Origin: Leucoraja ocellata
Taxonomy: Eukaryota
Reading direction: 5' to 3'
DNA: 64,000 bases
Assembly: GCA_036785375.1 (NCBI GenBank)
Contig: JAWMAR010000541.1
Span: forward strand, 496,001 to 560,000
How positions within the stretch are numbered: position 1 is the first letter of the stretch; every line of letters starts with the position of its first letter. The position numbers and the translations under genes were made by a program. The notes under the pieces were generated by a model that was not told the origin of the DNA, did not search any database, and worked only from the letters and a program-made list of their open reading frames with translations. This document shows, piece by piece, positions 1 through 64,000 of the stretch.

Positions 1-670
1 AGAGCGATACTGTAACCTCCGGACAAGCACTTCTTAAAATGTGATTCGCCGGTCTGTGGGAGTAACTGCTCCATTCCACAGATCATTATCCGTGCCTATG
101 AGAACTGACATCAGCACTTCATCTGTAAATGGACCCCACACTGTAAGTCAGCATTGTCCCCAGTTATGTGGCCTCCCTCCAACAGAACACAAACACCAGT
201 GGTGGTGATTCAGCAGACAGCAGCAGCATGAGAGTCTATAACCAGTGTTATTGTCATCCCTATCACCAGGGAATTTGCTTCATATCAGACATGCAGGAGT
301 GATCAATCATGGGCTCCACTTTTCCTTGGTCATCAGTGATTTGTTCAGCACCTTTCCATAGCTTTAGTTTTCCTCTCCACAGAATCACAGTCTGAAATAG
401 GGTCTTGACCCAAAACGTCACCTATTCCTTTACTCCAGAGATGATGCTTGAGTTACTCTAGTATTTTGTTTCTATCTTCAGTGTAAACCAGCATCTGCAG
501 TTCCTTCCGATACAGTCCTTCCGTTCATGCACCCACTGTTCAGGCTCATTTTTCTATATTTAACCAATCAACTCCTAGTCCGTGGGCACAGCTGGACCAG
601 TCAGGGTGGAAAATCAAACCTAATTCTAGAAAGATTCAGACGGCCCCAAAACAGGCCATTCAGCTCACCT

Positions 671-1650
671 TGTATTGTATTGTATTGTATTGTATATCTT
701 TATTGTTATTTCCTGAGTATTCACATACCCAGAGGAAACAAAAAAACGTTGCTCAACCAGTGTCCATTCAGTGTGCATTAAAAATAAATAGAAATAAAAA
801 TACATATATCATGAACAAATTAAACACTCTACTCTCTACTAAACATTCAACAGGCGTTCCGATCGGCAGCGGCACGACAGTGGCTCTGCTGCAGTGTGTC
901 CAGGTTGGTGGTTGGTGCGCGATACTTTGGCAGGGGGCAAAGTCCGTTTATCAGTCTTATAGCCTGTGGGAAGAAGCTGAGGAGCATCCTGCTGGTTTTG
1001 CAGCTAATGCTCCTGTACCTCTTCCCAGATGGCAGGATGGAGAATATGTGATGCAATGGGTGGTAGGGGTCTTTGATGATGGAGATGGCTCTGCTGATAC
1101 ATCTCTTCCTGTATAATTCCAGCAGGAAAGGGAGTGGAGCACCAATAATCCTGCTTGCGGTCTTCACAATCCTGTCTAGTTGGTGCCGTTCGTACGCCTT
1201 GCAGCTCCCGAACCAGGAAGTGATGCCGTAGGTCAATGTGCTCTCGATTGTCCCCCTATAAAAAGTTTGTAGGTGTGTAGTGGGGAGACCTGCTTTACGT
1301 AGTCTTCGGAGAGGGTGTAGTCGCTGCTGGGCTCTCTTGACCAGTGCTGTGGTGTTGGCCGTGGACGTCAGGTCATCTGACAGGTGTAGTCCTAGGAACT
1401 TCACGCTGCTGACCCTTTACACATCAGCTCCATCGATGTGCAGAGGTGTATGGTGTTGTTTCCCCGCCCTCCTGAAGTCAACCACCATCTCCTTAGTTTT
1501 TACCACGTTGAGAATGAGGTTGTGGGATTTGCACCAACCTATGAGCAGCTCCACCTCCATCCTGTACGCCGATTCATCATTGTCACTGATGAGACCCACC
1601 ACTGTTGTGTCATCAGCGAACTTGTTGATGAAGTTGTTGTTGAGTCCATG
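671..1650 (-). mobile_element. Rex1/Babar-type LINE 3' fragment
   Basis: FADDTTVVGLI...LNVVKTKEMVVDFRR and KFLG...AQQRL...FYRGTIES, then a (TACAA)n tail at 671-693. Confidence 0.85.
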
Positions 1651-2459: not shown

Positions 2460-2532
2460 GCTTTCACTTCCCTGCGACTCTCTCCTCTGCCCCTAGCTCC
2501 AGCTCTGAGCTGAGCTGTCTGCTTTCACTTCC
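2460..2532 (-). promoter_or_regulatory. Paired Ets-IRF composite (EICE/ISRE-like) sites
   Basis: The identical 12-mer GCTTTCACTTCC (minus strand GGAAGTGAAAGC) occurs at 2460-2471 and 2521-2532. Confidence 0.4.
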
Positions 2533-4035: not shown

Positions 4036-4167
4036 TGTTCAAGAAGGAACTGCAGATGCTGGAAAATCGAAGGTACACAAAAATGCTGTAGAAACTCAGC
4101 GGGTGTAGCAGCATCTATGGAGTGAAGGAAATAGGTAACGTTTCGGGCCAAAACCCTTCTTCAGACT
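4036..4167 (-). mobile_element. Solo Penelope-derived pLTR insertion
   Basis: Flanked by the duplication GATCCATGTACCTG (4022-4035 and 4168-4181) and carries the hammerhead-like core on the minus strand. Confidence 0.82.
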
Positions 4168-5028
4168 GATCCATGTACCTGTTTGTTTCTTAAACAATGG
4201 GATAGTCTCTGCCTCAACTATCTCCTCTGGCAGCTTGTTCCATACACCCACCACCCTCTGTGAGAAAAAGTTACCCCTCAGATTCCTATGAAATCTTTCC
4301 CCCTTCACCTTGAAGCTGTGTCTACTGGTCCTTGATTCCCTACTCTGGGCAAGAGACTCTGTGCATCGATCTGATCTATTCCTCTGATAATTCTGGATGG
4401 CAGAAGTTTCACTATGTGCTAGTCTAACAGTGGGCACTCGGTGGGTGGTGAGAAGAGACAAACTCTGGTGCATCAACATAATTTTACCTCCTGACTGCTA
4501 ACAATGAAACCCAGGTGAGGGGACATTCGAGGCCTTGCACAGTCTGGAGGGGCCTAGCCCAGACCTGACAGTTAGTGTCCTGGTGATGGAGATAATGGCT
4601 CTGTACCTGGAGCTCCTGAATGTTGACTCAGGGCCTGAGGTTATTTAGTTTAGTTTAGAGATACAGCATTGAAACGGGTCCTTCAGCTCACTACTCGCAC
4701 TAGTTTTATGTTACCCAATAACTTCACTCCCTACATATTCCAGGCAATTTACAGAGGTCAATTAATCTACAAACCAGCAAGTCTTTGGGATGTGGATGGA
4801 AATCGGAACACCCAAAAGAAACCCATGCAGTCACAGGGAGAACGTGCAAACTCCATACAGACAGCACCCAAGGTCAGAATGAGAACACGTGTCTCTGGCA
4901 CTGAGGCATCGGCTCCATTAGCTGTGCCACTGTGTTGCCTGGACTACAGAGAACTTGAGTGGGCCAGGACTTTATTCCTTTAAGCACATGAGGATGAGTG
5001 GTGATCAGAAGTTAGGTCTTTATTCTTT

Positions 5029-5428: not shown

Positions 5429-7264
5429 GATGGAGGTGTATAAAATAGCAGGCATGGATACAGGGTAAGTGCACATTGTTTTATTTTCTCCAGTTTGACA
5501 AATCAAGAATTAGAGGACATAACTTTAAAGTGAAAGGGGAAAGATTTAATAGGAACCTGGTGGGTGTGTGGAACGAGCTGCCAGTAGTTGTTGAGACAGA
5601 AACAATAGTTCCTCTGACATATTGTTCCCTCTATTCACCTGTTCCAATCTGACATATGGAACCCAATAGGAATATATGCGGAGGAAAGATCATGAGATCA
5701 TGTGATCGGAGCAGAATTAGGCCATTCGGCCCATCAAGTCTCCCGCACCATTCAATCCTCATGGCGGATCTATCTCTCCCTCCTAACCCCATTCTCCTGC
5801 CTTCTCCCCATAACCTCTGACACCTGTCGTGTTAGGTTAGATTGCAAGATTTAGAGGCATATGTGCCAAACGTGCAAATGGAACTAACAGTTGGGGTATG
5901 TTGGTCGATGTGTTGGGCTGGACGGCCTGTTACTGTGCCGTGGGCTCCCCCACATCCCCACACACGCTGCTTGACCTGCCGTGTGTGCCCAACATTCCCT
6001 GCACATTGCAGTGTCTGCAGTGGTTTCCAGTCCACAGTGGGGAGTGTGTATGGGGGCTTGAGTGGGGCGAGGGGGCAGTGGGATCACTGCGGGTTTGCCC
6101 TGCCTTCCTGTGGCAAGGCTGTGCAGAGAGATCAGTCGGGTAGTCCAGTGGAGGTCACTCATTGCTGTTGCAGGAAAGCCTAATCCTGCAGACAAACCCG
6201 CTGCCGTTTTAGACTCTCACTGATCCATTCCAACCAGCAACCGGTGACGCCTGTGTGCTGTCACCTGTCACAGGCTGCCGCTGGGCTGTGGGGCGGAGAT
6301 ACAGCCGGGCGGATGTTTGGTTCATTCTGGTCCAGGGACTTTCCAGTTAGCAATTCCCACCCAGTACAATGCGCGTCGCTGCTCGGTCAGACTCAGCTCC
6401 GATGGCGTTCCACAAGGGAGTGCAGCCAAAGTTAACCCTTTATAGTCCGGTGCTTACCTCTGAATCCAGGCAACACCCCATCAGAGATTCCGACTGCAGG
6501 GAGCTAGGCCATTCGGCCCATCACGTCCACACTGACCAGTGGTGACACTTACTGAAGAAGGGTCTCGTCCCGAAACGTCACCCATTCCTTCTCTCCAGAG
6601 ATGCCGCCTGTCCCGCTGAGTTACTCCAGCATTTTGTGTCTACCTTACGAATGAATCCCATCTTCCTGTATTAACCACCATCGACGCCCTGGCGATTCAA
6701 GTTGCTCATCGAGACTTGTTCTCTGTCTGGCAGTGTGTTCCAGGTGCTCACCAGTCCCCCTCCTAATCTCCTCCTCCGTATCCTAAATCCATTCCAGTAC
6801 TTCAGTTTTATTCACCTCTGATATGAGAATAGTGTCCCTTAGTCATTGTATTTACCTCAATCATGTCCCCTCTCAACCTCCTCCTCTGCAGAGGGAACAG
6901 AAACAGCCGCTCCAGATCACTGAACCGCTCCAACCTGGGGACTCTCCTCTGTATCCTCTCCATTGTAATCACACTTCCCTCGGATGGGGTGACTAGAACT
7001 GCACAAAGTATTCCAGGTCATGTCCAACCATTATTGAAGCATAACGCCTTTACACTCTCATCTCAGCCCTCACACCCCCACCTCACCTGCCTTGCAGAAC
7101 ATGACCTTTCCTACCCGATCCTGCTCTCTGTTCAAGGTGGGACCCCAACATCTGAGGGTCCCAGAGAGCCCCCAAACTCCATCATCCACAGCGAGTGTCC
7201 ACAAACACGGCAGCAGGAGGAGCACATTCATCCTCTCCTGTCCCATCATAGACATAGGTAACTG

Positions 7265-9124
7265 ATAGAAACATAGAAATTAGGTGCAGGAGTAGGCCAT
7301 TCGGCCCTTCGAGCCTACACCGCCATTCAATATGATCATGGCTGATCATCCAACTCAGTATCCCGTACCTGCCTTCTCTCCATACCCCCTGATCCCCTTA
7401 GCCACAAGGGCCACATCTAACTCCCTCTTAAATATAGCCAATGAACTGGCCTCAACTACCCTCTGTGGTAGAGAGTTCCAGAGATTCACCACTCTCTGCG
7501 TGAAAAAAGTTCTTCTCATCTCGGTTTTAAAGGATTTCCCCTTTATCCTTAAGCTGTGACCCCTTGTCCTGGACTTCCCTAACATCGGGAACAATCTTCC
7601 TGCATCTAGCCTGTCCAACCCCTTAAGAATTTTGTAAGTTTCTATAAGATCCCCTCTCAATCTTCTAAATTCTAGAGTGTATAAACCAAGTCTATCCAGT
7701 CTTTCTTCATAAGACAGTCCTGACATCCCAGGAATCAGTCTGGTGAACCGTCTCTGCACTCCCTCTATGGCAATAATGTCCTTCCTCAGATTTGGAGACC
7801 AAAACTGTACGCAATACTCCAGGTGTGGTCTCACCAAGACCCTGTACAACTGCAGTAGAACCTCTCTGCTCCTATACTCAAATCCTTTTGCAATGAAAGC
7901 TAACATACCATTCGCTTTCTTTACTGCCTGCTGCACCTGCATGCCTACCTTCAATGACTGGTGTACCATGACACCCAGGTCTCGCTGCATCTCCCCCTTT
8001 CCCAATCGGCCACCATTTAGATAATAGTCTGCTTTCCTGTTTTTGCCACCAAAATGGATAACCTCACATTTATCCACATTATACTGCATCTGCCAAACAT
8101 TTGCCCACTCACCCAGCCTATCCAAGTCACCCTGCAGTCTCCTAGCATCCTCCTCACAGCTAACACTGCCCCCCAGCTTAGTGTCATCCGCAAACTTGGA
8201 GATATTGCCTTCAATTCCCTCATCCAGATCATTAATATATATTGTAAATAGCTGGGGTCCCAGTACTGAGCCTTGGGGTACCCCACTAGTCACTGCCTGC
8301 CATTGTGAAAAGGACCCGTTTACTCCTACTCTTTGCTTCCTGTTTGCCAGCCAGTTCTCTATCCACATCAATACTGAACCCCCAATGCGTTGTGCTTTAA
8401 GTTTGTATACTAATTTCTTATGTGGGACCTTGTCGAAAGCCTTCTGGAAGTCCAGATACACCACATCCACTGGTTCTCCCCTATCCACGCTACTAGTTAC
8501 ATCCTCGAAAAATTCTATAAGATTCGTCAGACATGATTTACCTTTCGTAAATCCATGCTGACTTTGTCCAATGATTTCACCACTTTCCAAATGTGCTGCT
8601 ATCCCATCTTTAATAACTGACTCTAGCAGTTTCCCCACTACCGATGTTAGACTAACTGGTCTGTAATTCCCCATTTTCTCTCTCCCTCCCTTCTTAAAAA
8701 GTGGGGTTACGTTTGCTACCCGCCAATCTTCAGGAACTACTCCAGAATCTAAAGAGTTTTGAAAGATTATTACTAATGCATCCACTATTTCTGGAGCTAC
8801 TTCCTTAAGTACTCTGGGATGCAGCCTATCTGGCCCTGGGGATTTATCGGCCTTTAATCCATTCAATTTATCCAACACCACTTCCCGGCTAACCTGGATT
8901 TCACTCAATTCCTCCAACTCCTTTGACCCGCGGTCCCCTGCTATTTCCGGCAAATTATTTATGTCTTCCTTAGTGAAGACGGAACCAAAGTAGTTATTCA
9001 ATTGGTCCGCCATATCCTTGTTCCCCATGATCAACTCCCCTGTTTCTGACTGCAAGGGACCTACATTTGTTTTAACTAATCTCTTTCTTTTCACATATCT
9101 ATAAAAACTTTTGCAGTCAGTTTT
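7265..9124 (-). mobile_element. CR1-clade LINE, 5'-truncated, uninterrupted RT-coding 3' part (young copy)
   Basis: ORF 7355..9145: [45 protein letters not shown]. The 3' UTR ends in (TTTCTATG)-type repeats. The first 7 codons of the ORF are flank-derived. Confidence 0.95.
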
Positions 9125-11489: not shown

Positions 11490-12960
11490 ATTGTATAAGC
11501 CCACGGACTCCCACGGCTATCTAGACGACAAGTCTTCCCACCCTGCTTCCTGTATTTGGCTACGCCACATCTGCACCCAGGATGAAGTGTACCATATCAG
11601 GATATTGCAGATGTCCTTATTCTTTAGGCAATGGGGGTTTCCCTCTCCAATCATAGTTGAGGCCCTCACTAGGGTCTCGATATCCCGCAGCTCTGCACTT
11701 GCTCCCCCTCTCCTTGGTCATCACAGGGACAGAGTCCAGCTATTGCTCACCTTCCACCCCATCAGCACATGATCCTCCAACATTTTCCCCACCTCCAACG
11801 GGATCCCACCACCAGGCACATTTTCCCATCTCCGCTATCCGCGGAGATTGTTTCCACCACAATTCCTGATCAACTCATCCCTTCCCACCCAAACCATCCC
11901 CTCCCCAGGTACTTTCCCCCGCAACCATAGGAGATGCAACACCTGTCCCTATACCTCCCCCTTTGACTCCATCCAAGGAGCCTGACAGTCTTTTCAGGTG
12001 AGGCAAAGGTTCACTTCCACCTCCTCCATCCTCATCTCCTGTATCCGCTGTTCCAGGCGTGGACTCCTATATATTGCAGAGACCAAGCGCAGGCTCGGCT
12101 ATCGTTTCTCTGGCACCTCCTATCAGTCCGGCTAAACCTACCTGATCTCCTTGTTGCTACATACTTTAACTTCCCCCTCCCATTCCCACACTGACCTTTC
12201 TGTCCTGCACCTCCTCTTTATAATTCAACGTTAGATTTACTGTACGGAATCCTCCAGCATTAGTTTTTCACACAGGGTTGTACCATGTATGGAACTGGTG
12301 ACAATAAACCCCTTGAATCATGAATGCATTGTCAGGCTGAGGCCCAGAGCAAATTGGAGGAACAGCACCTCGTATTTTGCTTGGGTAGCTTACACCCCAG
12401 TGGTATGAACATTGACTCCTCTAACTTCAAGCAACCCTTGCTTTCCCTCTCTCTCCATCCTTTCCCCAATCCAGTTCTCCAACCAGTCTTACTGTCTCCA
12501 CCTACATATTATCTCTGTTTGCTTTGTTGTTACCTTCTCCCAGCTAACATAGAAACATTGAAAGTAGGTGCAGGAGTTGGCCATTAAGCCCTTCAAAGCC
12601 AACACCACCATTCAATATGATCATGGCTGATCATCCAGAATCGGTACCCCGTTCCTACTTTTTCCTCATATCCCTTTATTCCATTAGCCCTAAGAGCTAT
12701 ATCTAACTCTCTCTTGAATACATCAAATAACAATGATCTATTCTTCATTTTTCTTGATCTCCATTCCCTTTGTCATATTTTCACAGCTGACAATTCCTTA
12801 TCTATGTATCTCCCACTTCCCTGGCATCAGTCTGAAGAAGGGTCTTGATCCCAAAACGTCACCCATTCCTTCTCTCCAGAGATGCTGCCAGTCCCACTGT
12901 GTTTCTCCAGCATTTTGTGTCTATCTTCGGTTTAAATCAGCATCTGCAGTTCCTTCCTAC
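11490..12960 (+). mobile_element. Penelope-like element (Poseidon type) 3' fragment with pLTR
   Basis: YKPTDSHGYL..SSHP..C RT C-terminus, GIY-YIG-like LYIAETKR at ~12065, and the terminal repeat at 12829-12960. Interrupted by a CR1 tail. Confidence 0.8.
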
Positions 12961-13559
12961 ATATTTGTTTATTAATTTGTTGTCACATGTGCTGAGGTGC
13001 AGTGAAAAGCTTTTTTATTTTGTGCTGTCTAATCTATGGAAATACTTTACATGATTACAATCGACAAATACATGATAAAGGAAATAGCGTTTAGTGCAAC
13101 ATAAAGTCCAGTAAAGTCCGAATGAAGATGTCTGGTGAGCTAGATGGGTCTCTGAGGTAGAAAGGTCTCCGATGCGGTAGACAGCGGCAGATAGCAGATG
13201 TATGTAGAATGTATTGACTTATAGGACTGTAAATGTTTGTATTGTGTTTCCCGTTTATATGTTTACTAATTACATTTGAAATAAAATAAATGTGTGTGAA
13301 GACAGGCCAAACTAAACGATTTAGTCTCAAGGGGCTACAGATGCTGATTTCCAAATAAAGACACAATGTGCTGGAGTAAATCAGTGGGTCAGTCAGCATT
13401 TGTGGAGAACGTGGATAGGAGATGTTTTTGGGACCAGACAATTCTTCACGCTGATAGTAAGACAACTGGAAGAGAGGTAGGGGCAGGACAAAGCTTGGCA
13501 ATTGATAGTTGGTGCAGACAAAATATGTACGAAGGAAGTTCAGATGCTGGTCTACACTG

Positions 13560-13860: not shown

Positions 13861-14119
13861 ACACTGAAGATAGAGACAAAATACTGGAGTACTTTTCTCC
13901 AGAGATGCTGTCTGACCCACTGAGTTACTCCAACATTTTGTGTCTGTCTGATTGGTAGGTGAATACAGGTGAGGGTTAGTTTTTATTGTCAAATGTTTAG
14001 ACAAAGGCAAGAGACAAGAAAATAAAAAGTCTGAGAAGAATATAAGGGTAGAAGAGGCATGAAATGTGAAGCCAGAGGAAAGAACAAAAGTGGGCCAAAC
14101 TCAACAATATTAGACTGAC

Positions 14120-14265
14120 GGTACACAAAAAAGCTGGAGAAACTCAGCGGGTGCAGCAGCATCTATGGAGCAAAGGAAGTAGGCAACGTTTCGGGCCGAA
14201 ACCCTTCTTCAGTCTGAAGTTTGTGTACCTTCGATTTTCCAGCACCTGCAGTTCCTTCTTGAACA
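14120..14265. mobile_element. Penelope-derived inverted pLTR insertion, internally deleted
   Basis: Starts GGTACACAAAA and ends GAACA, exactly like 62035-62268. Target duplication ATATTAGACTGAC. Confidence 0.82.
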
Positions 14266-14602
14266 ATATTAGACTGACATTGACCCACTTTAGCCGACAA
14301 CTGATGACGACTCTCTGTTCCCTCGTCTCACTGGGTGAGGGTGGGAATAGGGCGGAGTCAATGTTGTGCAAATCAGTAGATTGTTTTGTTCGAACAAATA
14401 CGGAACTGCAGATGCCTGTTTACCAAAGAAAGATACACAGGGCTGGAGTAACGCAGTGGGTCAGGCTGCATCCGTGGAGAACGTGGACATGTGATGTTTC
14501 GGGTCGGGATCGTTCTCCAGACTGATTACGGGGGCGGGGGGGGGGGAGCTGGAGTAGAATTATTTTGTTAAACCAGTTTCTAACAGGGTTGAACCTCATC
14601 CT

Positions 14603-16362: not shown

Positions 16363-16426
16363 ATGGGAGCTGTTTACTTGTCTATGTTAGCGATGGCTAT
16401 AATATGCGGAGCCCGGGCTGGAAAGT
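16363..16426 (+). CDS. MHC class II alpha exon 1 (signal peptide [21 protein letters not shown])
   Basis: ATG at 16363 in good Kozak context (AACATGG), hydrophobic leader with an A-x-A cleavage motif, and donor T|GTAAGT at 16427. Phase 1 joins to exon 2 as TAC (Tyr). Lies about 160 bp after the X1/Y promoter. Not in the ORF track. Confidence 0.88.
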
Positions 16427-17052
16427 GTAAGTAATTCAATTATAACATTTAACAGAAATTGACGTCGGAACTCTCGGGATTAGCTGGTGTTATAATGAGT
16501 ACACAAGAATAATTCTGTTCTCACTTGGGTCTATTGTAACTGCAGAAAGATACAACATATTGGAGAAACTCAGTCTGAAGAAGTGTCCCGGCCCGAAATG
16601 TCACCTGTTGATGTTCTCCAGTGATCCTGTCTGATTCGCTAAACGATTCTATCATGTTGTGTTCTTTGGTGACCCAGCTTGTGCAGTTCCTTCATTCTCT
16701 ATTATAACTGGGGTCTGTCTTGGTCTCAGGATGTCTTATTTTCACAATGCTAAAGTAACCCTCACCTCGCTGATGTCTCTCGGGGAGTACAGTCCGGGTC
16801 ACACGATCCTCGCGGTGTCTCTAGAATCCCGAGCTCACTCCCTTTATATGGAAACGTTGCTGGTCTGAGTTTGTACTGGATTGATCCAGGGAATTTGAGA
16901 CGTCTGTTCCGAGTGAAGGAACAGTCTGTGACCGGATGGGAGTGGGAGCGGGGAGAAAGCCGGGAGTGACGGGGAGGCAGCGAGGGTCGGTGAAGATCTC
17001 TTCCGCCCGATAAACCCTGGGAGTGGTGGGAGTGAATTGAAGAGGAGACTGT

Positions 17053-17084
<32 letters not shown>

Positions 17085-20000
17085 GGTTGGGGAGAGGTCG
17101 GGGTAGGGGGTTACATTGACTGCCAGAAATTGGCTGGCCGGTGTTTAGGGTGAATGGTAGGTAGGATGCAATGGATCTGAGGAGGATATTTTTCCACCCG
17201 GAGAGTCGTTGGCATCTCGCCCTGCACCGGTCTTACATCTGCAAGTTATTGGTGACAGACTTTATCTTCATGTGGAAAGGCAGGTTGAATAGGAATAGTC
17301 GTCATAGGTTTGATCATGGGAAATCCTGCCTCACTAGTTCGTATGAGCCCCATTGTTCAGCTCTTTGCTCCCCCCTAGATATAGAATACCTGAAGAAGGG
17401 TTTCGGCCCGAAACGTTGCCTATTTCCTTCGCTTCATAAATGCTGCTGCACCCGCTGAGTTTCTCCAGCACTTTTGTGTACCTTCGATTTTCCAGCATCT
17501 GCAGTTCTTTCTTAAACACAAATATAGAGTTCCCCGGGACCACGCCTTTCATGCCACTGGCTCCACATCCAACAAATCATTCTCCAACATTCCCACTGCC
17601 TTCAACATGATCCAATGCCCAGTCACATATTCCGATCGCCACCCATTTCTGCTTTCTACCGAGACCGCTCCCTCGGCAACTCCTTGGATCACTCATTCCT
17701 TCCCACCCACTCTCCAGGATAAGCCATTATCCCCATTAACCGCCGGATAAGAATCACTTAGCCCTCTAACTCCACCCAGGGTCCACAGCAGCCCTTCGAG
17801 ATGAGACAGAGGTTGACGAGCACCTCTTCAAACCGCGTCTATTACAATCAGTGCTCCCGGTGTGACCTCCTTTGCTTCGGCAAAGCCGAGCATAGACCAG
17901 GCAACCATTTTGCTGAACACTTGCACTCGATCTGCCACGGCCGGCAGGAACTCCCAGTTGCTAACCATTTTGACTCCCATTCTCGAATCACCAATTTCCT
18001 TTTATCCCCCTGTTTCTCTTCCCCCTAACCCCATTCCACTCATATCCCGCCCTCTGGCTTTACATTTCACTCCTCTCCTCTGACATATGTTTTACTCCTT
18101 CATTCATATGGCAACCACCCCCTGCACCTGTATCCACCGATCACTTTGACAGGTTTTGTCCTGCCCCACCCGTTTTTCAGCTTTCTCTCTCCACTACAAT
18201 CAGTCTGAAGACTGGTTTTGGAATTGTTCAACATTAGGATCATAGTTTAATATCTGTATATATATATATTTTTTTTTAAATCAGTATTTATTCTGTTTAA
18301 TATTTGGGTTGATCAGTTCAATGTTGCAGTTTATTCATGTTCAATATCAGTGTGTGTGTGTGTCTTTGCTCCACACTGATCTCACTGTCATACATTTCCT
18401 TCACCTTGGAGAAAATTGATGCAAAGTATTCATTTATTACCTCTCCTACATCCCCAGACTCCAAGCACAAATGCTGGAGTAACTCAGCGGGCCAGGCAAT
18501 GGGTGACGTTTCGGGTCGAGACCCTTCCTCAGACTGATGTCAGGGGAGTGTGCGGGACAGAGATGTAATGTAGTCGGAGACAGTAAGACTGGTGGGAGAA
18601 ATGAGAAGGGGGAGGGGGGAAGTAAGGGCTATTTGAAGTTAGAGAAGTCAATGTTCTTACCACTACTCAAGCAAAATATGAAATGCTGTTCCTCCAATTT
18701 GCGCTGGACCTCACTCTGACAATGGAGGATGCCCAGGACACCAGGAGTTTGTAGTTTGTAGTTTGCCTTTCTCCAGTTTGCTACATTCCACAAGGTCCGG
18801 CCCTCTCCCTATTCAAAACAATCTTAAAACTTATGAATAGACACAAAATTCTCAGTAACTCGGCAGGTCAGGCAGTATCTTTGGTGAAAGTGTATAGGTA
18901 ATGTTTTGGGTTGGGCCTGAAACATTATTTATCCATTTTCTCCAGAGGTGCTGCCTGTCCCGCTGAGCTACTCCAGCACTTTGTGTCTAACCAGCATCTG
19001 CAGTTCCTTTGATTAAAACTGGCACTGGAGAGGCAACACACCACCCTTAAGTCCCATTTATTGCCACTGAATCTCCTGTCCGTACCCCTAACTAACGAGT
19101 CTCCTATCACGATGGATCTGTCTGACTGTTCCCTTCCCTGCCTCAGAGCCAGGCCTGACACTGCAGACCAGACCACAGCTGCTGCTCCCCCACACCAGTG
19201 GTGGAGGGGAATGGCCCTCTCTGCCTACTCCCTTTCCTGGTGGTCACCCATCAGGTGAAACCCAGTTAAGGGATTCATTTTTTTTACTATTCTGGGTTTA
19301 ATATTGTGGAACTTGTGTTTAATAACAACAAGTATAAATATTAAATCATGTTCATAAGTTCTAGGAGGAGAATTAGGCCATTCGGCCTATCAAGTCTACT
19401 TAAGTAATTTAATGACGGCTGATCTATTGTTCCTTCACAACCCCATTCTCCTGCCTTCTCACCATAATGCCTGACCCCTGTACTAATCAAGAATCTGTCC
19501 ATCTCCACCATAAAAAGCTCAATTGACTTGGCTCAGCTGATCGTGATAATGAATTCCACAGATTCACCACCCTGACTAAAAAAATTCTCCTCCTCCTTCC
19601 TAAAGCAATGTCTTTTTATTTTGAGGCTATGCCCTCTGGTCCTCTAAATCATATTTATATTTGTAACATTACACAGGATCCATAGTGAGGATCCCACACA
19701 ACAATGCTCAACACTTCTGCTCTGCAAGGATGTGATCTCGTCCCTTAACAGAGTCCTTATTCATTCACGACTGTGCCAAATCTGGTTCCGATTTGACTTA
19801 CAAGTTTGCAAATGACACCTCTGTAGTGGGCCAGATCTCAAGCAATGACAGCATGGTGTAATGAAAGATAGAGAGCTTGGTAACATGGTGTCAAGACAAC
19901 ATTGATGTTAGCAAGGCAGGAGCCAGTTATTGACTTCAGGAACGGGAGTCAAGGGTTATGGGGGGGAAGGCAGGAAAATGGGATTAGGAGGCATGATTGA

Positions 20001-32000: not shown

Positions 32001-35000
32001 CATCCTCCCTCCCTCAACCTTCCCTTCCTCTCCCATTCCCCCTCGCTCCCTCTCCCACCCTCTCCACCCCATCTGCTCACCTTCCCTGCCTCTCCCCCTC
32101 GCTACCCTTTGCCCTCCCTCCACATCCTCCATTTCCCTCCCCTTCTCCATCTCCTCCCTCCAACTACCCCCTCCCACTTCTTCCCCTCAATACATCCTCC
32201 TCCTCCCTCCCCTCTACGCTGTCCCCCTTCTCCCCACATTCCTCCCTTCCTATCCCCCACCCCCTGCCTCCCTCTCCCCCTCCCTCTGTCTCTCCCACTC
32301 CATCCCCCTCCCTCCATACCGTTCCTTCCTCCCTTCCCCCACCCCTACCCCTCCTTCTCCCCCACTACCCCCTCCTTCCCGCTCCCCTCAACCTCCCTTT
32401 CCCCTCCCTCCCCCCCCTGCCACCCTCACTTTCTTTCCCCCTCTCTTCATTCATCCACAATCCATTCCTCTCCCCTTCCTACCCCTCCCTCCTTCTCCCT
32501 ATCCACTCCCTTCCCCTCCCCAATCCTTTCCTCCCCTCTCCACTTGCTACTCTTCCCCTATCCCTCCACTTTCCCCACCCTCCTACCCACTTTCTCCCCT
32601 CCCTCGCTATCCCCCACCCACTTCCACCTCCCTCCCTCTCCCGCCACTCCCTCTCTCGCCCCCCTTCACCCCCTCCCTGGTTCCCCCTTCCATTGTATCT
32701 GCCCATCTCCCTTATCTCCTCTCTCCAACACCCACTTCTTCCCCTCCACCCCTCCCCCTCCCACCCTTCCACCCTCCCTCCCTCTCATCCCTCGCCCCTC
32801 GCCCTCTTCCCCCTCTTTCCCTCTCCCCTACTCTTCTCCCTCCCCCTCCTTCCCTACCCGCTCTCTCCCTCATCTCCCTTCCACTCCGCCCCTCTCACCC
32901 CGCCCTTACCCTCCCTCTTCCCCCTCCCACCGCTCTATCCCTCCCTCCCCCTTCATCTCCAACTCCCGCTTCCCTCCTCCCACTCCCCCTGCCTTGCTCC
33001 CACCATTCCCCTCCCTCCCTTTCCCCGTCCGTCTCTCCCTCCCTCTACCACTCGCACCATCCCTCCCTCTCCCCCCTTCCATCTGTACCGCCTCCATGCC
33101 TGCCCCCTCTCCCCGCCCCCTTCCTGCCACTTCCACCTCCCTCCATTTCCCCCTCCCGCACTCCCCCTACGTTCAGCTCCCCCACCCCTTCCTCCCTCTA
33201 TCCCACTCCTTCCCCCCTCCATCTCCCTCCCCCTCAATCTTCTCTCTCTCTCTGCCCCCTCCCCCTCATTTCCTCCCTCTCACCACCTGCTTTTCTCACA
33301 CACAGACCGGCACGAGGAACACCTGGTCTACGTGGTCCAGGACGGCAGCCCCGACAAGCAGTTTGACCTGTTGGTGGATGACGATGAGGTTTTCTACATG
33401 GACTTCAAGCTGAAGAAGGAGGTGGCGCGGATCCCCGCGTTCCAGCACATCACGATGCAGGGAGGAGAGGCGGGGATCACGGCTCAAATCGCCCTCAATA
33501 AACAGAATTTAAATGTTTGGAAGAACCTGTCGCACGGGAGCCCGGAGCCCAAAGGTGAGCGCGGGGGCCGGGGTTAGGGCCGGGTAACCCGGGCTGTCCG
33601 CAACAGCGAGCCGCTCCCCCTCCCTCACCGATCCCTACTGTGGAACTGCTCCAGCTCCAGACGCCCCAGAAACGACTTTAGTCTAATCGCCTCCTCGCTC
33701 CCGCTCCCGTGGGGAGGGGCGGGGCAAGGGCTCGACGTCACGCCAGCGCGCATGCGCCCCACCCCCCCCTCTCGGGCAATGCGCTTGCGCCGATCTCCGC
33801 ACTAGGCCCCGCCCCACGGGTTGGAGCCCGTTGCGCGCACGTGAGGCGCCGCTAACGGCCGGGAGCGGGAACGATGCGGCCATTAGGTGTGACGTTGGGT
33901 TTAGTGAAGACCAGACTAAGTGGGGCCCTAATCCTGTCGTGTGAGGTCGAGGCGAGGGGATTAGTCGAGGTGTAGGTGAGGGGCAGTGGGTGTAGGTGAG
34001 GGGGAAGTGAGTGTAGGTGAGGGGCAGTGGGTGTAGGTGAGGGACAGTGGGTGTAGGTGAGGGGCTGTGGGTGTAGGTGAGGTGAGGGGAAGTGGGTGTC
34101 TGAACTCGGGAGGGGGAGGCCAAGGAGCTGCTGAAGGAGACGAGAGCGACAACTACCTTCTGTAGCAGAGAATTACACAAATTCACAACTCTGGGTGAAA
34201 ACGTGTTTTCTCATCTCAGTGCGAGGCAAAGACACATTTCAGGTAACATAGTTTTTGTAAAGATTTTTAGCAATGTTACAAAATTTTGAGATTTAAAAAT
34301 CAAGTCTGCAATTTATCCCATCAGATAAAAAAGTATTAAAAAAGTTATGGCCATTTTCATACTCGGAAATTAGCATCTTGTTCCCTATTGATTTCCCATT
34401 GACTTAACACAAAAGCTGTGATCGAGGACAGTCTAAAGCCCATAACTTTTATTAAAAATTAAGAGAACTGAAATAAATTTTCAGTTATAATAGATTGAAG
34501 CATTCTGAAACAAATATTAAACAATCTTACTTGGATGACCTGAAATTAAAGCATATAATTAGTTAGTTACCCAATTGTAGCTAATTCCAAAATTCAATTA
34601 CTAGATCTAAACATCTATCCATTTCTTAAGGAAAGATTAACATTTTTAAATAGCATAAGTGTCCAAAGAACATTCACACAAGAATTCACAATAAAACATG
34701 ATTTTTAAATCTCATTGAGATTAATTTATAGGCCAAATGGAAGAGATTTAGTGTTTAATTGCTGTAAATGAATGGCCATTTAAATCAGCTTTCGAGTGGG
34801 ATCCTGTAGAACGCGCTGGTTTGGAACGTTCCCATTGCGGTGGATTTGTACCCCATATGCCCAGAAAAATACTGCGGGATTTAATGGGCCCCCAAATTAG
34901 TTACTCGCAACATAAAATGTTGTATAAAGGGATCTTAAGAAGCGCTTTTAATGTAAAAATAAACAACCTACCTTCCGTTGTCCCCTGCATGAGATCCATC

Positions 35001-47000: not shown

Positions 47001-50000
47001 CTCCTCGGCCCACAGCCTAGATTGAGGGTTATTTATTGGTTGATGTGGGTTGACGATGATATCACGACCAAAGTTCCTGCCCCAGCCCACACCTCCAGCT
47101 CCAGGTGACCGGTTCACATCACGTCCACTGTCCCCAGGGTTTACTGATGGAACTCACTGCTGGTGAAGACACAGGGCAGGTGCTGGGACACAAATAAACC
47201 AACCATTTATCAGCTTCCACTGTTGGTTGTAAATCTTCAATTGCATTTCTGCTCTGCAGTTAGTTGTGAACTAGTCCTGGTCTCTGCTCCTTACATTCCC
47301 CACCCATACTCATTGCATTCTGGTTTCAGTGTCCAGTCACCTTGGTTAACCTGTTCTCCCCTGTCTGCCCACAGTGCCCCCTCAGACTGCCATGTACCCC
47401 GAGGATCCCGTGGAGTGGGGTGAGTCCAACACCTTGATCTGTCTGGCTGACGGATTCTATCCTCCGCGCATCAACATGAAGTGGAAACGGAACAATGAGC
47501 CTGTGACTGAGGGAATCGACACCACGGAATATTACGTGAAGAGAGATTACACCTTCCAGAGGTTCACCTACCTGAACTTCATCCCGAGCCCGGGAGACAT
47601 GTACTCCTGCCACGTGGAGCACGAGGGTCTGGAGAGGCCCACCACTGTCTTCTGGGGTCAGTATGGACCAGGTTAACGGGGCTGATCTCTATGCGGGGTT
47701 GGGACTGGTTGGTGGTAGGTTCCACATTCACCTGATCCAATAGCAAGGCCTCAGCTTTCTGTTCCAGCTACAAGTAGGTGGAGTGCTGGGTACCACCGTG
47801 TACCATGGGGTTCAAGACCAGTGAATGTGTCCTGCTCGTGGAGTGAGTGTTGCTGGTGCTGTCTAACCAGGGTGGGCGATTGTAAAACCAGTCTAGACGC
47901 TGACAAATGGCAAATAGAGCTGTCATTGTCCATGTTGTCCACATAGTGATGAGGAGAGCACTGTGTCCCTGCCATGATTGGATTCCCAGTCAGTAATGAA
48001 ACAGGCTTGGTTGTCAGAAACCACAGATGAGGACGAGGCTTACATTCCCGGCCACATCCTGGGCAATGTTCAGGACCTATTCTGACTGCATATTGTGGAT
48101 GTTCTGATTAGATTGTTCCCCAGGCAGTTGTCCATCTTGAGTGTCTCCAGACCATTTCAGTCCTGGGATTTTAGTGTACTCTGACAGAGTGCCACAATAA
48201 TGAATCTTTCCTGCTGGAGAGTTACTCCGAGCTGCTGCAAATTGGGACACTGCATCTAACACAGTAAAGTCTTCACTGGTAATGCACATTCATTGATTGA
48301 GCCAAACCAGTGAGTTTACATCATCGATACTCTTTCTCCTTACAACTAAAGGGCGATCGCACTCTCCAATTAGTCTGTTAACTAATCTCACCCCAGATTC
48401 TATCCCTCACCCACACATTGGGTCAATTTACAGCAGCCACTAAACCTGCCAACCCACATGTTTCTGAGATGTTCGGGGAAACTGCAGCACCCAGTGAATA
48501 CCCGCACAGTCACAGGGAGAAAGTATAAACTCCACACATACAACGTTATGATTGAACCCAGGTTCTTGATGTTGTGAGGCTGTGGCCTTACCCACTGCAC
48601 CACTTTGTCACCCAAAGTTAATCCCGTTTGTTTATCAGTGGAAAATATTGCTTCTATTGGCTTTGACAGCCTTTCATTGTGCAACAGAGAATGGGCAGCT
48701 AAAGACAAAATGAGAATTAAGGACTAAACAGAAATGAACAGGGAGAAATTCTGTCTTCTCACCTCTTCTTTTGCTGCCAATTCTCTCTGATGTACAATGA
48801 AAATGTTGCTTGCACCAGACTCATAAGATATGTGTTCTTTCACATGGGTATAAACTGGAAGGCATAGACATATATGACAAACAAATCAAATTATATATAA
48901 AAATAAATTATACATAAATGACACTCAAAATTAAGCAAGGCTGCGCAAAAAAACAAGATAGTGCAAAACACAATTGTAGTCTGTCTCGTCGCTCTTTGTC
49001 TCTCAGCCATTCCCCATCTCCATCTATTACTCCTGCCTCACTCATACTTGTCTGTTTTTCCTTTTCTCTCTGCTCCCCAGCTCCGTCTCTCGCCTTCTTT
49101 CACTCATCCTCTCTCTCGTTCCTTCTCTCAACCCCTTTCCTTCTCTGCACAATTTACTGTTGTCCTCATAACACCACACCTGTAGAGTCAGCAAAGATCC
49201 TCTTCCTTGCCTGTTCTTTCCCCGTCTTTAAAATGCATTGCCTACATTTTGAGTAAGTAACACACAGAAACCTGATTCAAACATAATGGGATTAGAAACA
49301 ACATGAAGAAACCATTACATCAAAGGGAGAAAACAGAGGGATCTGGTGAGTGGAAAAGAAAAATACAGGCAACCTGGAAATCTGAAATACTGGATTCAGT
49401 CAACAGGAGATAGAGGGACAGATATAAAGGCATTTTCCAGAGCTATATGTTAAAATGGTGTAATGATACTAGGAGATTTCATACTTGGGAAGTTAAAGGA
49501 CACCATTTTTGAGGTTTGTCCAGGAGAGTTTTTTGACATAGTATATAGTAGACCAATGATGGAAGGAGCAGCACTGGATCTCGGGGAATGTAACCAGTCA
49601 AGTGGAGGAGCATTTTGGAGATAGTGATGGGAACTAATGACACAGAGCCTGTCAAGAGTATAAAGAGTGTCAGGAGGAGCGTGAAACAGAAATTGGAAAG
49701 GAAAAGAGGGGTCATGAGAAAACACTGGCTGACAGGACTAAGTTAAGCAGGAAAGTCTATTACCATATAACCATATACCAATTACAGCACGGAAACAGGC
49801 CAACTCGGCCCTTCTAGTCCGTGCCGAACACTTATTCTCCCCTAGTCCCTATCCATTCCTTTCCCGTCCATATAACTATCCAATTTATTTTTAAATGATA
49901 AAATCGAACCTGCCTCCACCACATCCACTGGAAGCTCATTCCACACAGCTACCACTCTCTGAGTGAAGAAGTTCCCCCTCATGTTACCCCTAAACTTCTG

Positions 50001-62000: not shown

Positions 62001-63429
62001 CCACCACCTGCATTCCAGTTAGACTCTTATCTTTGGTACACAAAAATGCTGGAGAAACTCAGCGGGTGCAGCAGCATCTATGGAGCGAAGGAAATAGGTG
62101 ACGTTTCGGGCTGAAACACTTCTTCAGACTTAGTTGAGTCTGAAGAAGGGTTTCGGCCCGAAACGTCACCTATTTCCTTCGCTCCATAGATGCTGTTGCA
62201 CCCGCCGTGTTTCTCCAGCATTTTTGTGTACCTTCGATTTTCCAGCATCTGCAGTTCCTTCTAGAACAGATTCTTATCTTTGTTTTATTCACACTAAAAT
62301 GCACCAAAACTCTCATGGTTACACTATTTGGGAGTGCAAACTTAATACCACGTTTCCATTGCTTTGTAACAACCCCAGACCAATTCCATTCTCCTCATTC
62401 TCCCTCTGATCATTCCCAAACTAATCCCATTGCCCAGACTCTCCACCTGATCATTCCTAGACTAATCCCATTGTCCACACACTGCCCACTTGATCAGCCC
62501 CAGACCATTCCCACTGCTCTGCTCTCCACATAGTCTGAAGTGAACCCCACAGGTGTGCACATTTCCTGCACTTGTAACAAGGTAGATCTCATCCCTCCCT
62601 CCTCAGTTCCTGCGATCTGCTTCTATTTCACCCATTTGTCCAAACTTTACTTGCATGTTCCAGGGGCTCTGGTACAACAATCGCTGTGACCTCAGACAGC
62701 TCTTCCCTGTGTATATGCTCTGCTGATGCCCATCTTACATTGCCTACCCTCTATCACTCTTATGTGGGGTGTGGACAAGTTGGATGTGTCTCCGAGGCAG
62801 AGAAGATTGGACAGGTATATGTGGTGAGGTTTTGATCATGAAGGGTTCTCACACAGCAGACAGGTGAAGTTGTTTCTGCTGCCATGGGTCAGGAACCAGA
62901 CGAGATGGATATATGACGTGAGATTTTTAAGCAGCAATCTCCTGTGATCTGGAATTCCGTGTTGAATCTGGAGTTGAATAATTATACTAGATAACGGGAT
63001 AAAGAGCTGAAGGAAATGCCATGTAGTTGCAGGGCAGGTTGGATGCTGCTTTCACATCGCTGGTACCGTGAGAATGTTGAACGTTTGCTGTTTGATATTG
63101 TGAGTATTTCACACAGATCAGGGAATTACTGACGTGTGGGGCCAGGGTTTGCTGACGTAAGTGTGTATTTGGGGTGGGACTGGCTCCCCTCCACCCAGGT
63201 GGGCTTGGTGTCCCAGCTCTCTACTCTATGTGTTCATCCCGGGCTCTCTGTTGGATCCTTACCCTTCCCTCGTCTCTCCCCAGAGCCCGAGGTACCTGAG
63301 GAAGTGTCTGGCCCTGGAACCGTGATCTGTGCTCTGGGAATCACTCTGGGAATCATCAGCGCCGTGGTGGGAATCATCTTACTGATCAAAGAGAGGCAGC
63401 GGCTGCAGGCTCAGCAGCAGGGCATCTAG
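16363..63429 (+). CDS. MHC class II alpha chain gene, spliced CDS join(16363..16426,33306..33554,47375..47656,63284..63429), 741 nt, 246 aa
   Basis: Four exons join in frame through phase-1 GT-AG introns (64+249+282+146=741 nt) and give leader, alpha1, Ig-C1 alpha2 and CP/TM/CYT. Exon layout and motifs match class II alpha chains, especially the shark type ([15 protein letters not shown], [49 protein letters not shown]). Confidence 0.95.
17054..17083 (+). repeat. (GT)n microsatellite in intron 1
   Basis: About 15 GT units. Confidence 0.9.
17390..17417 (+). ncRNA. Minimal hammerhead ribozyme motif (Penelope-associated), intron 1 sense strand
   Basis: CTGAAGA-a-GGGT(TTCG)GCCC-GAAA-C-GTT. The 5' arm of stem I appears truncated. 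Confidence 0.5.
21675..21986 (-). mobile_element. tRNA-derived SINE (HE1/V-SINE-like)
   Basis: A/B-box-like head (GGTGGTGCAGCGG...AGTTCGATCC), central GGAGTTTGTACGTTCTC core, CR1-like tail and (CTAAA)n. Related copies at ~1676-1955, ~3580-3780, ~4640-4935, ~15140-15400, ~48400-48610 and ~60140-60275. Confidence 0.8.
22038..22210 (+). mobile_element. tRNA-derived SINE (HE1-like), 5' half
   Basis: GGCACGGTGGCACAGCGGTAGAG...GGTTTGATCC...GGAGTTTGTATGTTCTCC, inverted relative to 21675-21986. Confidence 0.8.
22234..25800 (+). mobile_element. DIRS1-like tyrosine-recombinase retrotransposon (degenerate, internally deleted)
   Basis: Left terminus ATTTTACTTCGGAGTCACGTGAGTGAC, inverted right terminal repeat at ~25727-25800, ICR at 25348-25460. 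Coding remnants: gag-like ORFs (22450-~23830), RT ([28 protein letters not shown] at ~24471) and YR ([16 protein letters not shown]...F.KYY, 24550-25166), with stops and frameshifts. Confidence 0.9.
25348..25460 (+). other. DIRS internal complementary region (ICR), copy 1
   Basis: 25348-25384 is the reverse complement of the left terminus (22234-22270). 25418-25460 is the reverse complement of the right-end extension (25758-25800). Confidence 0.88.
27950..33290 (+). repeat. Multi-kb pyrimidine (C/T)-rich low-complexity tract ending at the exon 2 acceptor
   Basis: Almost G-free C/T sequence, interrupted only by the Rex fragment at 28372-29107. A smaller tract lies at ~20829-21325. Confidence 0.95.
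28372..29107 (+). mobile_element. Rex1/Babar-type LINE 3' fragment inserted in the pyrimidine tract
   Basis: [15 protein letters not shown]...FLGV.ISDDLSW...[10 protein letters not shown]...LPSGRRYRS...NSFFP, ending in a (GAATCT)n tail. Confidence 0.88.
33306..33554 (+). CDS. MHC class II alpha exon 2 (alpha1 peptide-binding domain, 249 nt)
   Basis: Acceptor ttttctcacacacag|, donor G|GTGAGC. Encodes [83 protein letters not shown], hidden at the end of the low-complexity ORF 31811..33577. Confidence 0.95.
33560..33960. promoter_or_regulatory. Intronic CpG island with promoter-type motif cluster
   Basis: CpG-dense. GC boxes at 33716-33725 and 33806-33815, CRE-like GACGTCA 33734-33740, NRF1 palindrome GCGCATGCGC 33748-33757 plus variant 33780-33790, E-box CACGTG 33838-33843, YY1-like GCGGCCATT 33876-33884. 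Confidence 0.55.
33968..34100 (+). repeat. ~20-bp G-rich tandem repeat, about 6 units
   Basis: Unit GTGGGTGTAGGTGAGGGGCA with variants. Confidence 0.85.
35355..35830 (+). mobile_element. Penelope-like element fragment
   Basis: [26 protein letters not shown] motif. Related fragments lie at ~17530-18210, ~37075-37560 and ~39770-39925. Confidence 0.8.
36283..36640 (+). repeat. 36-bp minisatellite, about 9-10 units
   Basis: Unit TTTTAGCACTTTCAA(A/C)ACCAAAGGCAA(T/G)GCAGCTTG, which explains the 12-aa periodic ORFs on both strands. Confidence 0.92.
37566..39770 (-). mobile_element. CR1-clade LINE, second family (endonuclease tail + RT, frameshifted), nested in a Penelope fragment
   Basis: Minus-strand ORFs with [42 protein letters not shown]. 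Confidence 0.9.
40290..42200 (-). mobile_element. Highly decayed RTE-clade LINE fragments (two blocks, ~40290-40880 and ~41770-42200)
   Basis: Frameshifted RELKSKWW...EIQ...NATKAAYGP and PPSLQEV motifs typical of RTE ORFs. Confidence 0.5.
43434..44925 (-). mobile_element. Vingi/Ingi-like LINE, 5'-truncated and frameshifted, inserted in the purine tract
   Basis: [53 protein letters not shown] and a C-terminal W.TLNRLR...CSCG...HLLEC zinc-knuckle-like motif, with a short GAAGAA tail. Clade assigned from motif memory. Confidence 0.75.
46073..46245. other. Assembly gap (173 N)
   Basis: Run of N inside the purine tract. Confidence 0.99.
47375..47656 (+). CDS. MHC class II alpha exon 3 (alpha2 Ig C1 domain, 282 nt)
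   Basis: Acceptor cccctgtctgcccacag|, donor G|GTCAGT. VPP...[13 protein letters not shown]...W...YSCHVEH...VFW is a C1-set signature, and 282 nt is the canonical length. Confidence 0.97.
49763..50346 (-). mobile_element. CR1 second-family 3' end
   Basis: ORF 49842..50324 ([11 protein letters not shown]...TRGH) with a (TATATGGT)n tail. A + strand copy lies at ~5029-5428. Confidence 0.88.
50560..51690 (+). mobile_element. Degenerate CR1 RT/3' end
   Basis: [24 protein letters not shown] and a CR1-type 3' UTR. More CR1 debris lies at ~56190-56640 and ~9590-10590. Confidence 0.75.
51718..56187 (-). mobile_element. DIRS1-like retrotransposon, second related copy (both termini present, coding region decayed)
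   Basis: Same terminal sequence on the minus strand at ~56150-56187, ICR at 51944-52052, right end at 51718-51825. Gag remnant [31 protein letters not shown] is nearly the same as in copy 1. YR HS.R motif at ~52340. ~61-bp tandem repeats at 55340-55600. Confidence 0.88.
57898..59521 (-). mobile_element. Tc1/mariner DNA transposon, Passport-like (IR/DR group), full length ~1.62 kb
   Basis: TA duplication (57896-57897 and 59522-59523) and ~213-bp TIRs starting CAGTGGCTTG, with the (T/G)TGCAAAAGTATTCA-type motif repeated at both ends of each TIR. Confidence 0.95.
58128..59142 (-). pseudogene. Tc1 DDE transposase, frameshifted
   Basis: [28 protein letters not shown]...GRPPKL...WSDETK...[13 protein letters not shown] is open for 207 aa. 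The rest ([25 protein letters not shown]) lies in shifted frames. Confidence 0.9.
62035..62268. mobile_element. Penelope-derived inverted pLTR pair with two hammerhead-like cores
   Basis: 96-bp inverted arms (62035-62130 and 62137-62232), a ~36-nt unpaired tail, and a flanking duplication GA(C/T)TCTTATCTTT. Confidence 0.85.
62138..62169 (+). ncRNA. Minimal type I hammerhead ribozyme motif (Penelope-associated)
   Basis: gt-CTGAAGA-a-GGGT(TTCG)GCCC-GAAA-C-GTC-ac: core CUGANGA/GAAA, stem II with a UUCG loop, palindromic ACGU in place of stem III, and a GUC triplet. Confidence 0.6.
63284..63429 (+). CDS. MHC class II alpha exon 4 (connecting peptide, TM, cytoplasmic tail, stop)
   Basis: Acceptor cgtctctccccag|. 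Encodes [48 protein letters not shown]. Donor GTGAGT at 63432, 2 nt after the stop, implies a separate 3'UTR exon as in other class II alpha genes. Confidence 0.95.
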
Positions 63430-64000
63430 CGGTGAGTGCGGGGCTTGTGATGATCACAGTCTGTGTCCAGTCCCATCACTGGGAGAGATTCTCCATCAGA
63501 AACTCCCAAGGCTGTTCCTTGTTCACCCCTCTGGTACCAGGGTTCCACCGTTCACCCTCCGACCCTTCGATTATCCGAACCTTCAGTGAAAATGGAAATC
63601 CAGGTAGGTTTAAATATAGGAAGGCCAATTTCATTAAATAAGGGAAGACCTGACAGAGGTAGAGACACAAGAGACTGCAGATGCTGGAATCTGGTGCAAC
63701 ACACAAGCTGTTGGGGAAAACTCAGGCTGACACAGGGTTTCAACCCAAAATGTCAACCATTTCATTCTCCTCATGATGTTGAATTTCTCCAGCAGTTGGT
63801 TTGTTGCTCCTGGCCCAGGTGAATCAAGAGCATCTACTTGCAGTAAGTCTACATCTACACAGTGGGATGGGAAGCATTCAAAGGAGAAATGACGAGAATT
63901 AGCCCAATCAATCACCAGACCAGACTCCCCATCATTGACTCCATCAATGATTGTACTCCACCATTGACTCCACCCTGACATGAGGGCGATGCAGTGGCAC

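Follow-up and report, generated by a model that had tools for sequence, protein, structure and literature searches.

What are the short hammerhead-bearing inserts that recur through this stretch of skate DNA, a mini-element with a ribozyme of its own or pieces of something larger? The window, by which we mean the whole 64-kb stretch analysed, holds a gene for MHC class II alpha and had been taken, in a sequence-only reading, to carry a high-copy retrozyme-like or solo pLTR element derived from Penelope. In our analysis the inserts, here called stubs, are terminal pieces of about 100-135 nt that were likely laid down by the RT/GIY-YIG of an autonomous Penelope-like element (PLE) from uncleaved RNA, with the hammerhead riding along; we give this reading a probability of about 0.8.

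The hammerhead-core motif is present where it had been placed, with C3 of CUGA at 4164(-), 6552(+), 14212(-), 17390(+), 18532(-), 62127(-) and 62140(+), and the number given for the predicted cleavage after GUC, 62167, is right. A profile made from 68 full-length copies recovers 18 Penelope-end units in the window and none in the reversed sequence (Table 1); two of them, at 13328-13456 and 13892-13949, were absent from the earlier list, and the youngest are 95-97% identical to copies attached to an ORF. Five places in the window pass a strict minimal-hammerhead descriptor (4164, 14212, 17390, 18532 and 62140), but 6552 fails by a U-U in stem II and 62127 by a change of G to U in the same stem; in the 1.2-Mb sample described below the descriptor has 32 matches vs 0 in reversed sequence. 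The five copies, with G10.1-C11.1, GAAA and NUH, bear out a minimal type I hammerhead with an extra A and a palindromic ACGU stem III, and the short stem I of about 2 bp is also as had been noticed: 2 bp (paired in 72/74 copies each), a 2x2 mismatch and then 2 bp more (69 and 68/74). The Rfam search that had been proposed as a check returned no hammerhead family at E<=10 in the window, and its mir-722 matches at 62092-62175 merely reflect the inverted repeat found there.

Table 1. Units of the Penelope end, Penelope ORF fragments and MHC class II alpha exons in the 64-kb window
Feature	Position	Strand	Basis or remarks
Decayed unit with tail	386..509	+	Profile
Solo unit with tail, intact core (C3 4164)	4036..4170	-	15-bp target duplication; within LINE-like 3' fragment
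Solo unit without tail	6552..6647	+	5' end = C3; stem II U-U mismatch
Penelope ORF fragment	11494..12428	+	
Tailed unit plus about 105 nt of Penelope pyrimidine-rich 3' UTR	12727..12959	+	Core damaged
Old decayed unit	13328..13456	-	Profile
Unit fragment without hammerhead core	13892..13949	+	Profile
Head-to-head pair	14115..14262		Untailed minus arm with intact core (C3 14212); plus arm is tail end only; 17-bp duplication
Decayed unit with tail	14397..14528	-	Profile
Coding part of MHC class II alpha exon 1, signal peptide	16363..16426	+	RNA reads gave exon end, located at 16408-16425
Decayed unit, MHC intron 1, sense	16567..16694	+	
Solo tailed unit, intact core, MHC intron 1, sense	17390..17519	+	5' end = C3
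Further Penelope ORF fragments	17564-17983, 35354-35830, 37013-37605, 39768-39913		
5'-truncated Penelope end: last ~40 GIY-YIG ORF codons, 3' UTR, intact core (C3 18532)	18466..18760	-	Internal deletion 3' of hammerhead core
Decayed head-to-head pair, one arm tailed, other untailed	18837..19009		8-bp flanking repeat
MHC class II alpha exon 2, alpha-1 domain	33306..33554	+	Pfam MHC_II_alpha; RNA joint to exon 3
MHC class II alpha exon 3, C1-set domain	47375..47656	+	C1-set match; RNA joint to exon 2
Head-to-head pair, MHC intron 3	62035..62268		Minus arm 96 nt, untailed, core damaged; plus arm 132 nt, tailed, intact core (C3 62140); 15-bp duplication, one mismatch
MHC class II alpha exon 4, transmembrane part and stop	63284..63431	+	Inferred: translation, splice signals
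Head-to-head pair past MHC exon 4, strongly decayed	63668..63809		

Several copies had been credited with target duplications of 13-14 bp of their own. The clear duplications measure 15 bp (4036-4170), 17 bp (14115-14262) and 15 bp with one mismatch (62035-62268), and some copies do have one to themselves; 14212, 62127 and 62140, however, are arms of two head-to-head pairs (62127 and 62140 belong to the same one), and each pair has a single duplication for both arms. No clear target duplication was seen at the 6552 unit, and only a 7-bp core at the 17390 unit.

The window contains other repeats as well. A LINE RT frame of 610 aa, which we take to be CR1-like, occupies 7355-9187 (-), with more fragments across the window, one of which received the 4036-4170 unit. 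A Tc1/Sleeping Beauty-type transposase fragment (58519-59154, -) lies between 215-nt inverted repeats (57896-58110 and 59309-59523), and two related degraded elements in opposite orientations with RT-like frames, presumably DIRS-like, were found at 22400-25500 and 51900-55400; the two frames tested had no Pfam match. A tandem array of 36-nt units at 36271-36614 is open in several frames.

The derivation of the units from Penelope is confirmed by their place in the parent element: the unit consists of the final ~100 nt of a PLE, probably of the Neptune type, with or without a 'tail' of ~35 nt. It lies 3' of the ORF, after a pyrimidine-rich UTR of ~100 nt, in 18/20 loci retrieved with the ORF fragment of the window; all 20 loci picked for long ORFs terminate in it, and in all six loci that extend as far as the start of the ORF the unit or the tail directly precedes it. 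The monomer finishes at the short 3' end of the unit, and the tail is the first part of the leader that precedes the following ATG; the hammerhead sits in the leader ~170 nt upstream of the ATG. As the unit follows the ORF and the tail begins the leader, the unit is the terminus of the element and nothing else. In locus L183 an inverted tailed arm, a partial tandem, a full ORF and an untailed end follow one another. Unbroken ORFs of 1,236-1,269 aa are found in three loci (L181-L183). The intact ORFs contain an RT with YIDD (Pfam RVT_1 at E about 1e-6, slightly under the curated cut-off), and a GIY-YIG-type end and a CCHH motif that were read by eye, with no Pfam match; the copies are 98-99.7% alike across the RT/EN part. 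Between RT and EN, L181-L184 have the linker C-x4-C-x2-C, and this CX2-5CxxC pattern, which is common to Nematis as well (PMC8557442), suggests that the parent is of the Neptune type. In the same four ORFs the N-terminal part is separated from the RT by a long insert (residues ~190-520) that is rich in proline, contains variable short repeats and resembles the low-complexity inserts of Adineta Penelopes. In the literature within reach, which excluded subscription papers and Repbase, we found nothing on this family in cartilaginous fish or on the 5' wall described below; the family may have been catalogued already, and the supplements of PMC4209133 and 10.64898/2026.07.22.740005 may list related motifs.

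The exact 31-nt motif occurs 57,428 times genome-wide and its reversed pattern not once. In a sample of 120 unselected 10-kb stretches (1.199 Mb) we counted about 590 units (4.9 per 10 kb), with none in reversed sequence, which gives an estimate of ~1.7 million stubs (bootstrap 1.5-1.9 million), or 4.6% of bases, in the 3.44-Gb assembly; the figure is an extrapolation, since the stretches were taken from the larger contigs. An ORF end is still found upstream of 30 of the 591 sampled units, and inverted pairs number ~19 per 200 kb.

The ends of these copies are far from random. In the 1.2-Mb sample the 3' ends form two peaks, one at position ~109 and the other at ~137 of the model, and the two sites match both internal RT start sites reported to bound the tail in the anole element (PMC11167929). 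Head-to-head contact involves 227 of the 591 units (38%) and makes 111 mutual pairs, against 5 cases of tail-to-tail. One arm is tailed and the other untailed in 66 of the 78 pairs that could be classified (p=2e-10), with no tail in 8 and two in 4; the other 33 of the 111 were left out of this test, one arm being outside both classes. Target duplications of 9-18 bp flank 37/114 pairs (control 1) and 24/128 single copies (control 0/128), and no recognisable duplication was seen around the other 77 pairs and 104 singles. The junctions of the pairs are all different in the 50 sites listed, therefore each pair arose anew, and we conclude that the autonomous element gives rise to copies de novo. 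At L048:2750-3160 and in L025, L151 and L102, parts of the unit are tandemly expanded over short internal stretches with periods of 30-66 nt, which are possible seeds of pLTR-derived minisatellites.

To map the 5' ends we used 169 single copies that match a reference with an attached ORF at 85% identity or more. Many of them are simply truncated, 83 beginning inside the unit; the remaining 86 reach core base +1, and of these 58 stop at -8..+1, only 5 in the following 91 nt, and 23 run for at least 100 nt. This abrupt stop, which we call the wall, is not an alignment artefact of unknown UTRs, since 15 of the 24 singles verified by their duplications end at -6..+1. Exact cores genome-wide keep the upstream GT in 81% of cases, AGT in 65% and CAGT in 53%, and for a 24-nt core ATCAGT is kept upstream in 31%. 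The wall appears weaker in the youngest copies, where ~18 of 30 exact-core loci read by eye continue into the UTR (the 30 come from one contig end, and several duplicate one another). At the predicted cut site (+28) there is no peak of ends, with 4/169 singles and 7/129 pair arms ending at +27..+30; the templates that were copied were therefore uncleaved RNA, as is reported for the anole element (PMC11167929).

How would such stubs be made? The anole element is a Poseidon and not a Neptune, but by analogy with it (PMC11167929) the protein would nick both target strands ~9-18 bp apart, and cDNA synthesis would begin within the RNA, at one or the other of two sites separated by ~35 nt. A single cDNA would give a solo unit, and two cDNAs, one per nick and per start site, a head-to-head pair; two nicks, two primers and two start sites within one event are, we infer, the simplest reading of the pairs. 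The least certain step is the nature of the wall. Our working choice, to which we give close to an even chance, is that it marks the start of the mRNA at an Initiator-like TCAGTCT, such that the stubs would be copies of the mRNA leader, which would lie only 100-135 nt from the RT start sites. Taken further, and tentatively, Penelope might produce SINE-like inserts without a SINE: most insertion events would copy the leader only because the RT would start inside the RNA just 100-135 nt from the cap, and each nick would use a different start site, giving one tailed and one untailed arm.

The spot of the wall matches what we take to be the Initiator motif in 72/81 references, and a 3' splice acceptor of the polypyrimidine-CAG kind in 74/81. 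Transcription of the Penelope of D. virilis is reported to start within the pLTR (PMC2377424). A mark of the cap is equivocal here. G stands just upstream of GT (-3) in 4,114 of 9,300 cases (44%) vs 33% expected from trinucleotide frequencies, and upstream of AGT (-4) there is no excess, with 31/100 among the matches listed vs 34% expected. A cap-derived G at -4 had seemed present in a small sample (16/30), but it was driven by pair arms and was gone among the first 100 genome matches listed; because the excess at -4 vanished and that at -3 shrank after the trinucleotide correction, we do not rely on it.

It is also quite possible, if short of probable, that the wall is a stop of the RT on a long RNA from the same element, caused by the edge of a C-rich tract, by a protein sitting on the acceptor or by a switch of template at the near-palindrome TCAG-T-CTGA. 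The wall does lie 3-8 nt before the C-rich tract and coincides with the acceptor, the ends spread over several bases, the cap signature is weak, and in D. virilis an intron end of Penelope is reported to map to the 5' end of helix I (PMC4209133). However, cDNAs that pass beyond the wall seldom stop within the tract (5/28 in 91 nt), no spliced upstream exon is common to 67 solo copies, and singles have the same wall as pairs, so that annealing of two cDNAs is unnecessary. The rest of the probability goes to other causes. Spliced templates were considered and dropped, given those 67 solo copies and the lack of a GT-AG joint into the acceptor among the RNA joints listed; transduction of host exons was likewise rejected, as 50 solo copies comprised 9 with a near duplication, 2 with a far one (a possible duplication 96 and 194 nt further upstream) and 39 with none.

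We then turn to the hammerhead itself. The seven main clusters in an alignment of 314 copies agree at every catalytic position but differ in loop II, at position 17 and at positions 42-58. Stem changes across subfamilies are one-sided and keep their pairing by G-U wobble; a two-sided change is found only in a handful of old decayed copies. In one old decayed subfamily (L088, L152 and L164) the base of stem II is A-U and stem I is longer, at 4 bp, which suggests that stem I was shortened in younger lineages. The downstream block 59-90 is as invariant across subfamilies as the core, therefore constancy of the core is by itself no proof of catalysis. Among 256 sampled copies the CpGs of the core have decayed at 0.28 vs 0.21-0.25 at other CpGs; outside CpGs the mutation level is 0.058 in the core vs 0.083 in the downstream conserved block, and 0.018 vs 0.033 in 103 UTR-anchored copies. 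We ascribe the better-kept non-CpG sites mostly to subfamily mixture, though selection at the level of copies could give the same. Mutation of the core at the rate of its flanks, named earlier as evidence against a ribozyme, is thus absent in the source lineage, where the core is constrained, but present in the inserts, where its CpGs decay neutrally.

With regard to activity, the predicted minimum-energy fold is not the hammerhead, the helix I of 4-5 bp of PLE minimal hammerheads is not matched here, and the outer pairs are often missing in solo copies. The 62035-62268 pair is predicted to form a single 96-bp RNA hairpin of -185 kcal/mol, in which the 62140 core would be buried; the fragment earlier suggested for a cleavage assay (62120-62200) sits within this 96-bp inverted repeat predicted to sequester the core. 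Minimal hammerheads are reported to cleave poorly even as dimers (PMC4209133; review PMC6765202), and 8/9 Xenopus dimers did not cleave (10.64898/2026.07.22.740005), but the anole hammerhead does cleave, given the protein that it needs (PMC11167929). The hammerhead in the stubs is likely inactive; it is likely maintained in the active lineage, where it may cut weakly as a dimer or with help from the protein. RNA reads from four runs labelled as a related species reach a depth of thousands over the unit and fall below 30 from ~100 nt past the tail, which indicates that RNA bearing the unit is mostly passenger transcription of stubs. At no site in these reads did the starts or ends of many molecules gather, as is to be expected of libraries of this kind. 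No unit-length back-joint was seen among the RNA joints listed (126 more were unlisted, and two of the four libraries were oligo-dT).

It seems to us unlikely that the core has ceased to be a ribozyme and owes its conservation to a promoter or protein-binding function in the pLTR. The interrupted stem I (2 bp, 2x2 mismatch, 2 bp), the predicted fold, the equally invariant block 59-90 and the inert Xenopus dimers would all be in keeping with such a role, but against it stand the catalytic positions, which stay constant while loop II, position 17 and 42-58 vary, the stem changes that retain pairing by G-U wobble, the few old copies with an A-U stem II base and a 4-bp stem I, and the cleavage of the anole hammerhead with its protein.

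Far less probable still is a separate, non-autonomous retrozyme-like element, transcribed, self-cleaved, circularised and re-inserted by Penelope enzymes. Non-LTR retrozymes have been reported as derivatives of pLTRs (10.64898/2026.07.22.740005), and a very high copy number, a fixed length, target duplications and an intact motif in tens of thousands of copies would suit one, but the mapping of ends largely refutes it: the units have no private sequence and their ends are off the cleavage site. Unit-length tandem arrays are also missing, the 33 adjacent same-strand pairs among 591 copies being mostly fragments or short internal repeats, with none in the window; the pair junctions differ in all 50 sites listed and 67 solo copies share no common 5' flank. 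The distinct mini-retroelement of the sequence-only reading is thus given up, its proposal that the copies were mobilised by Penelope RT/GIY-YIG is supported as likely, and its 'solo pLTR' label comes close to the truth.

The MHC class II alpha gene spans 47 kb (16363-63431), with repeat-packed introns of ~17, 14 and 16 kb. A splice donor lies two bases past the stop codon of exon 4, and multi-kilobase low-complexity tracts with purine/pyrimidine asymmetry occupy 27900-33300, directly upstream of exon 2, and 42280-46980. The exon map agrees with the earlier placement of sense copies in introns 1 (16567, 17390 and 18908) and 3 (62140). The density of 18 units per 64 kb is below the genome-wide average of 4.9 per 10 kb, therefore the MHC locus is not enriched, and nothing points to a special role of the units at this gene. 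We give hardly any credence to the idea that intronic sense copies cut or regulate its pre-mRNA, since, although introns 1 and 3 do contain intact sense cores (17390 and 62140) and two motifs of a transcript could pair through the palindromic stem III, density is below average, core CpGs decay neutrally, stem I is down to 1 bp at 17390, the predicted hairpin would bury 62140, and minimal hammerheads are described as poor cleavers even as dimers (PMC4209133).

The element follows the general configuration described for Neptune PLEs with minimal hammerheads (PMC4209133, PMC8557442): a single RT plus GIY-YIG ORF with a Zn-finger-like linker; a minimal type I hammerhead in the pLTR, with G10.1-C11.1, a palindromic stem III and one base added after A9; strong 5' truncation, 5' copies in inverted orientation and, at one end, a tail of 30-40 bp. 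It differs from those accounts in scale, with units estimated at 1.7 million and 57,428 exact copies of the motif here vs minimal motifs numbering ~4,000 in coelacanth and ~9,000 in Xenopus; in its shorter stems (II of 4 bp and I of 2 bp vs 7-8 and 4-5 bp in Schistosoma); and in the hammerhead lying in the leader, ~170 nt upstream of the ATG. PAc, the Poseidon of Anolis carolinensis (PMC11167929), shares the two 3' end points around the tail, the uncleaved template and the lack of ends at the cut; in PAc, which belongs to another clade, the ORF starts inside the hammerhead and the RT start sites lie inside the ORF, whereas here both lie before the ATG, and the sections of its description considered here contain neither a 5' wall nor a tail/no-tail rule for inverted pairs.

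Metazoan non-LTR retrozymes (PMC7229834; 10.64898/2026.07.22.740005) resemble the units in being short, non-coding, pLTR-related and dispersed as monomers with a type I hammerhead, and have been found in one chondrichthyan (10.64898/2026.07.22.740005). They are described as tandem repeats of ~150-450 bp with a ribozyme per unit and circular RNA, whereas our units are single or inverted, with a minimal core and ends outside the cut site. The pLTRs of Adineta vaga Penelopes (PMC3846280) are similar in their head-to-head arrangement, an optional 31-bp tail on one of the two, duplications of 8-10 bp and an Initiator-like motif; there, copies are few and recombination or deletion was invoked for the solo pLTRs, whereas in our case many solo units have target duplications of their own and were therefore inserted as such. 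A tail at one end only has been described qualitatively (PMC8557442, PMC3846280). The stubs are thus truncated ends of a known PLE class, to which the 5' wall and the tail rule add new detail.

How PLEs integrate, where their tails and inverted ends come from and what the hammerhead does are presented as open questions in the literature (PMC8557442, PMC11167929). The fixed start and end points of the units likely record how the element copies itself, and a young intact element together with ~1.7 million stubs offers base-level statistics on the steps of integration and a ready substrate for work in vitro. For ribozyme scans there is a warning in the tens of thousands of intact-looking hammerheads that are passengers of truncated insertions, and the inverted pairs are predicted to give rise to much intronic double-stranded RNA. 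If the stubs are indeed copies of the leader, more than 1 million frozen intermediates would mark out where transcription begins, the two sites at which the RT starts and the stagger of the nicks, and several hundred thousand long RNA hairpins would have been left in the genome as a by-product.
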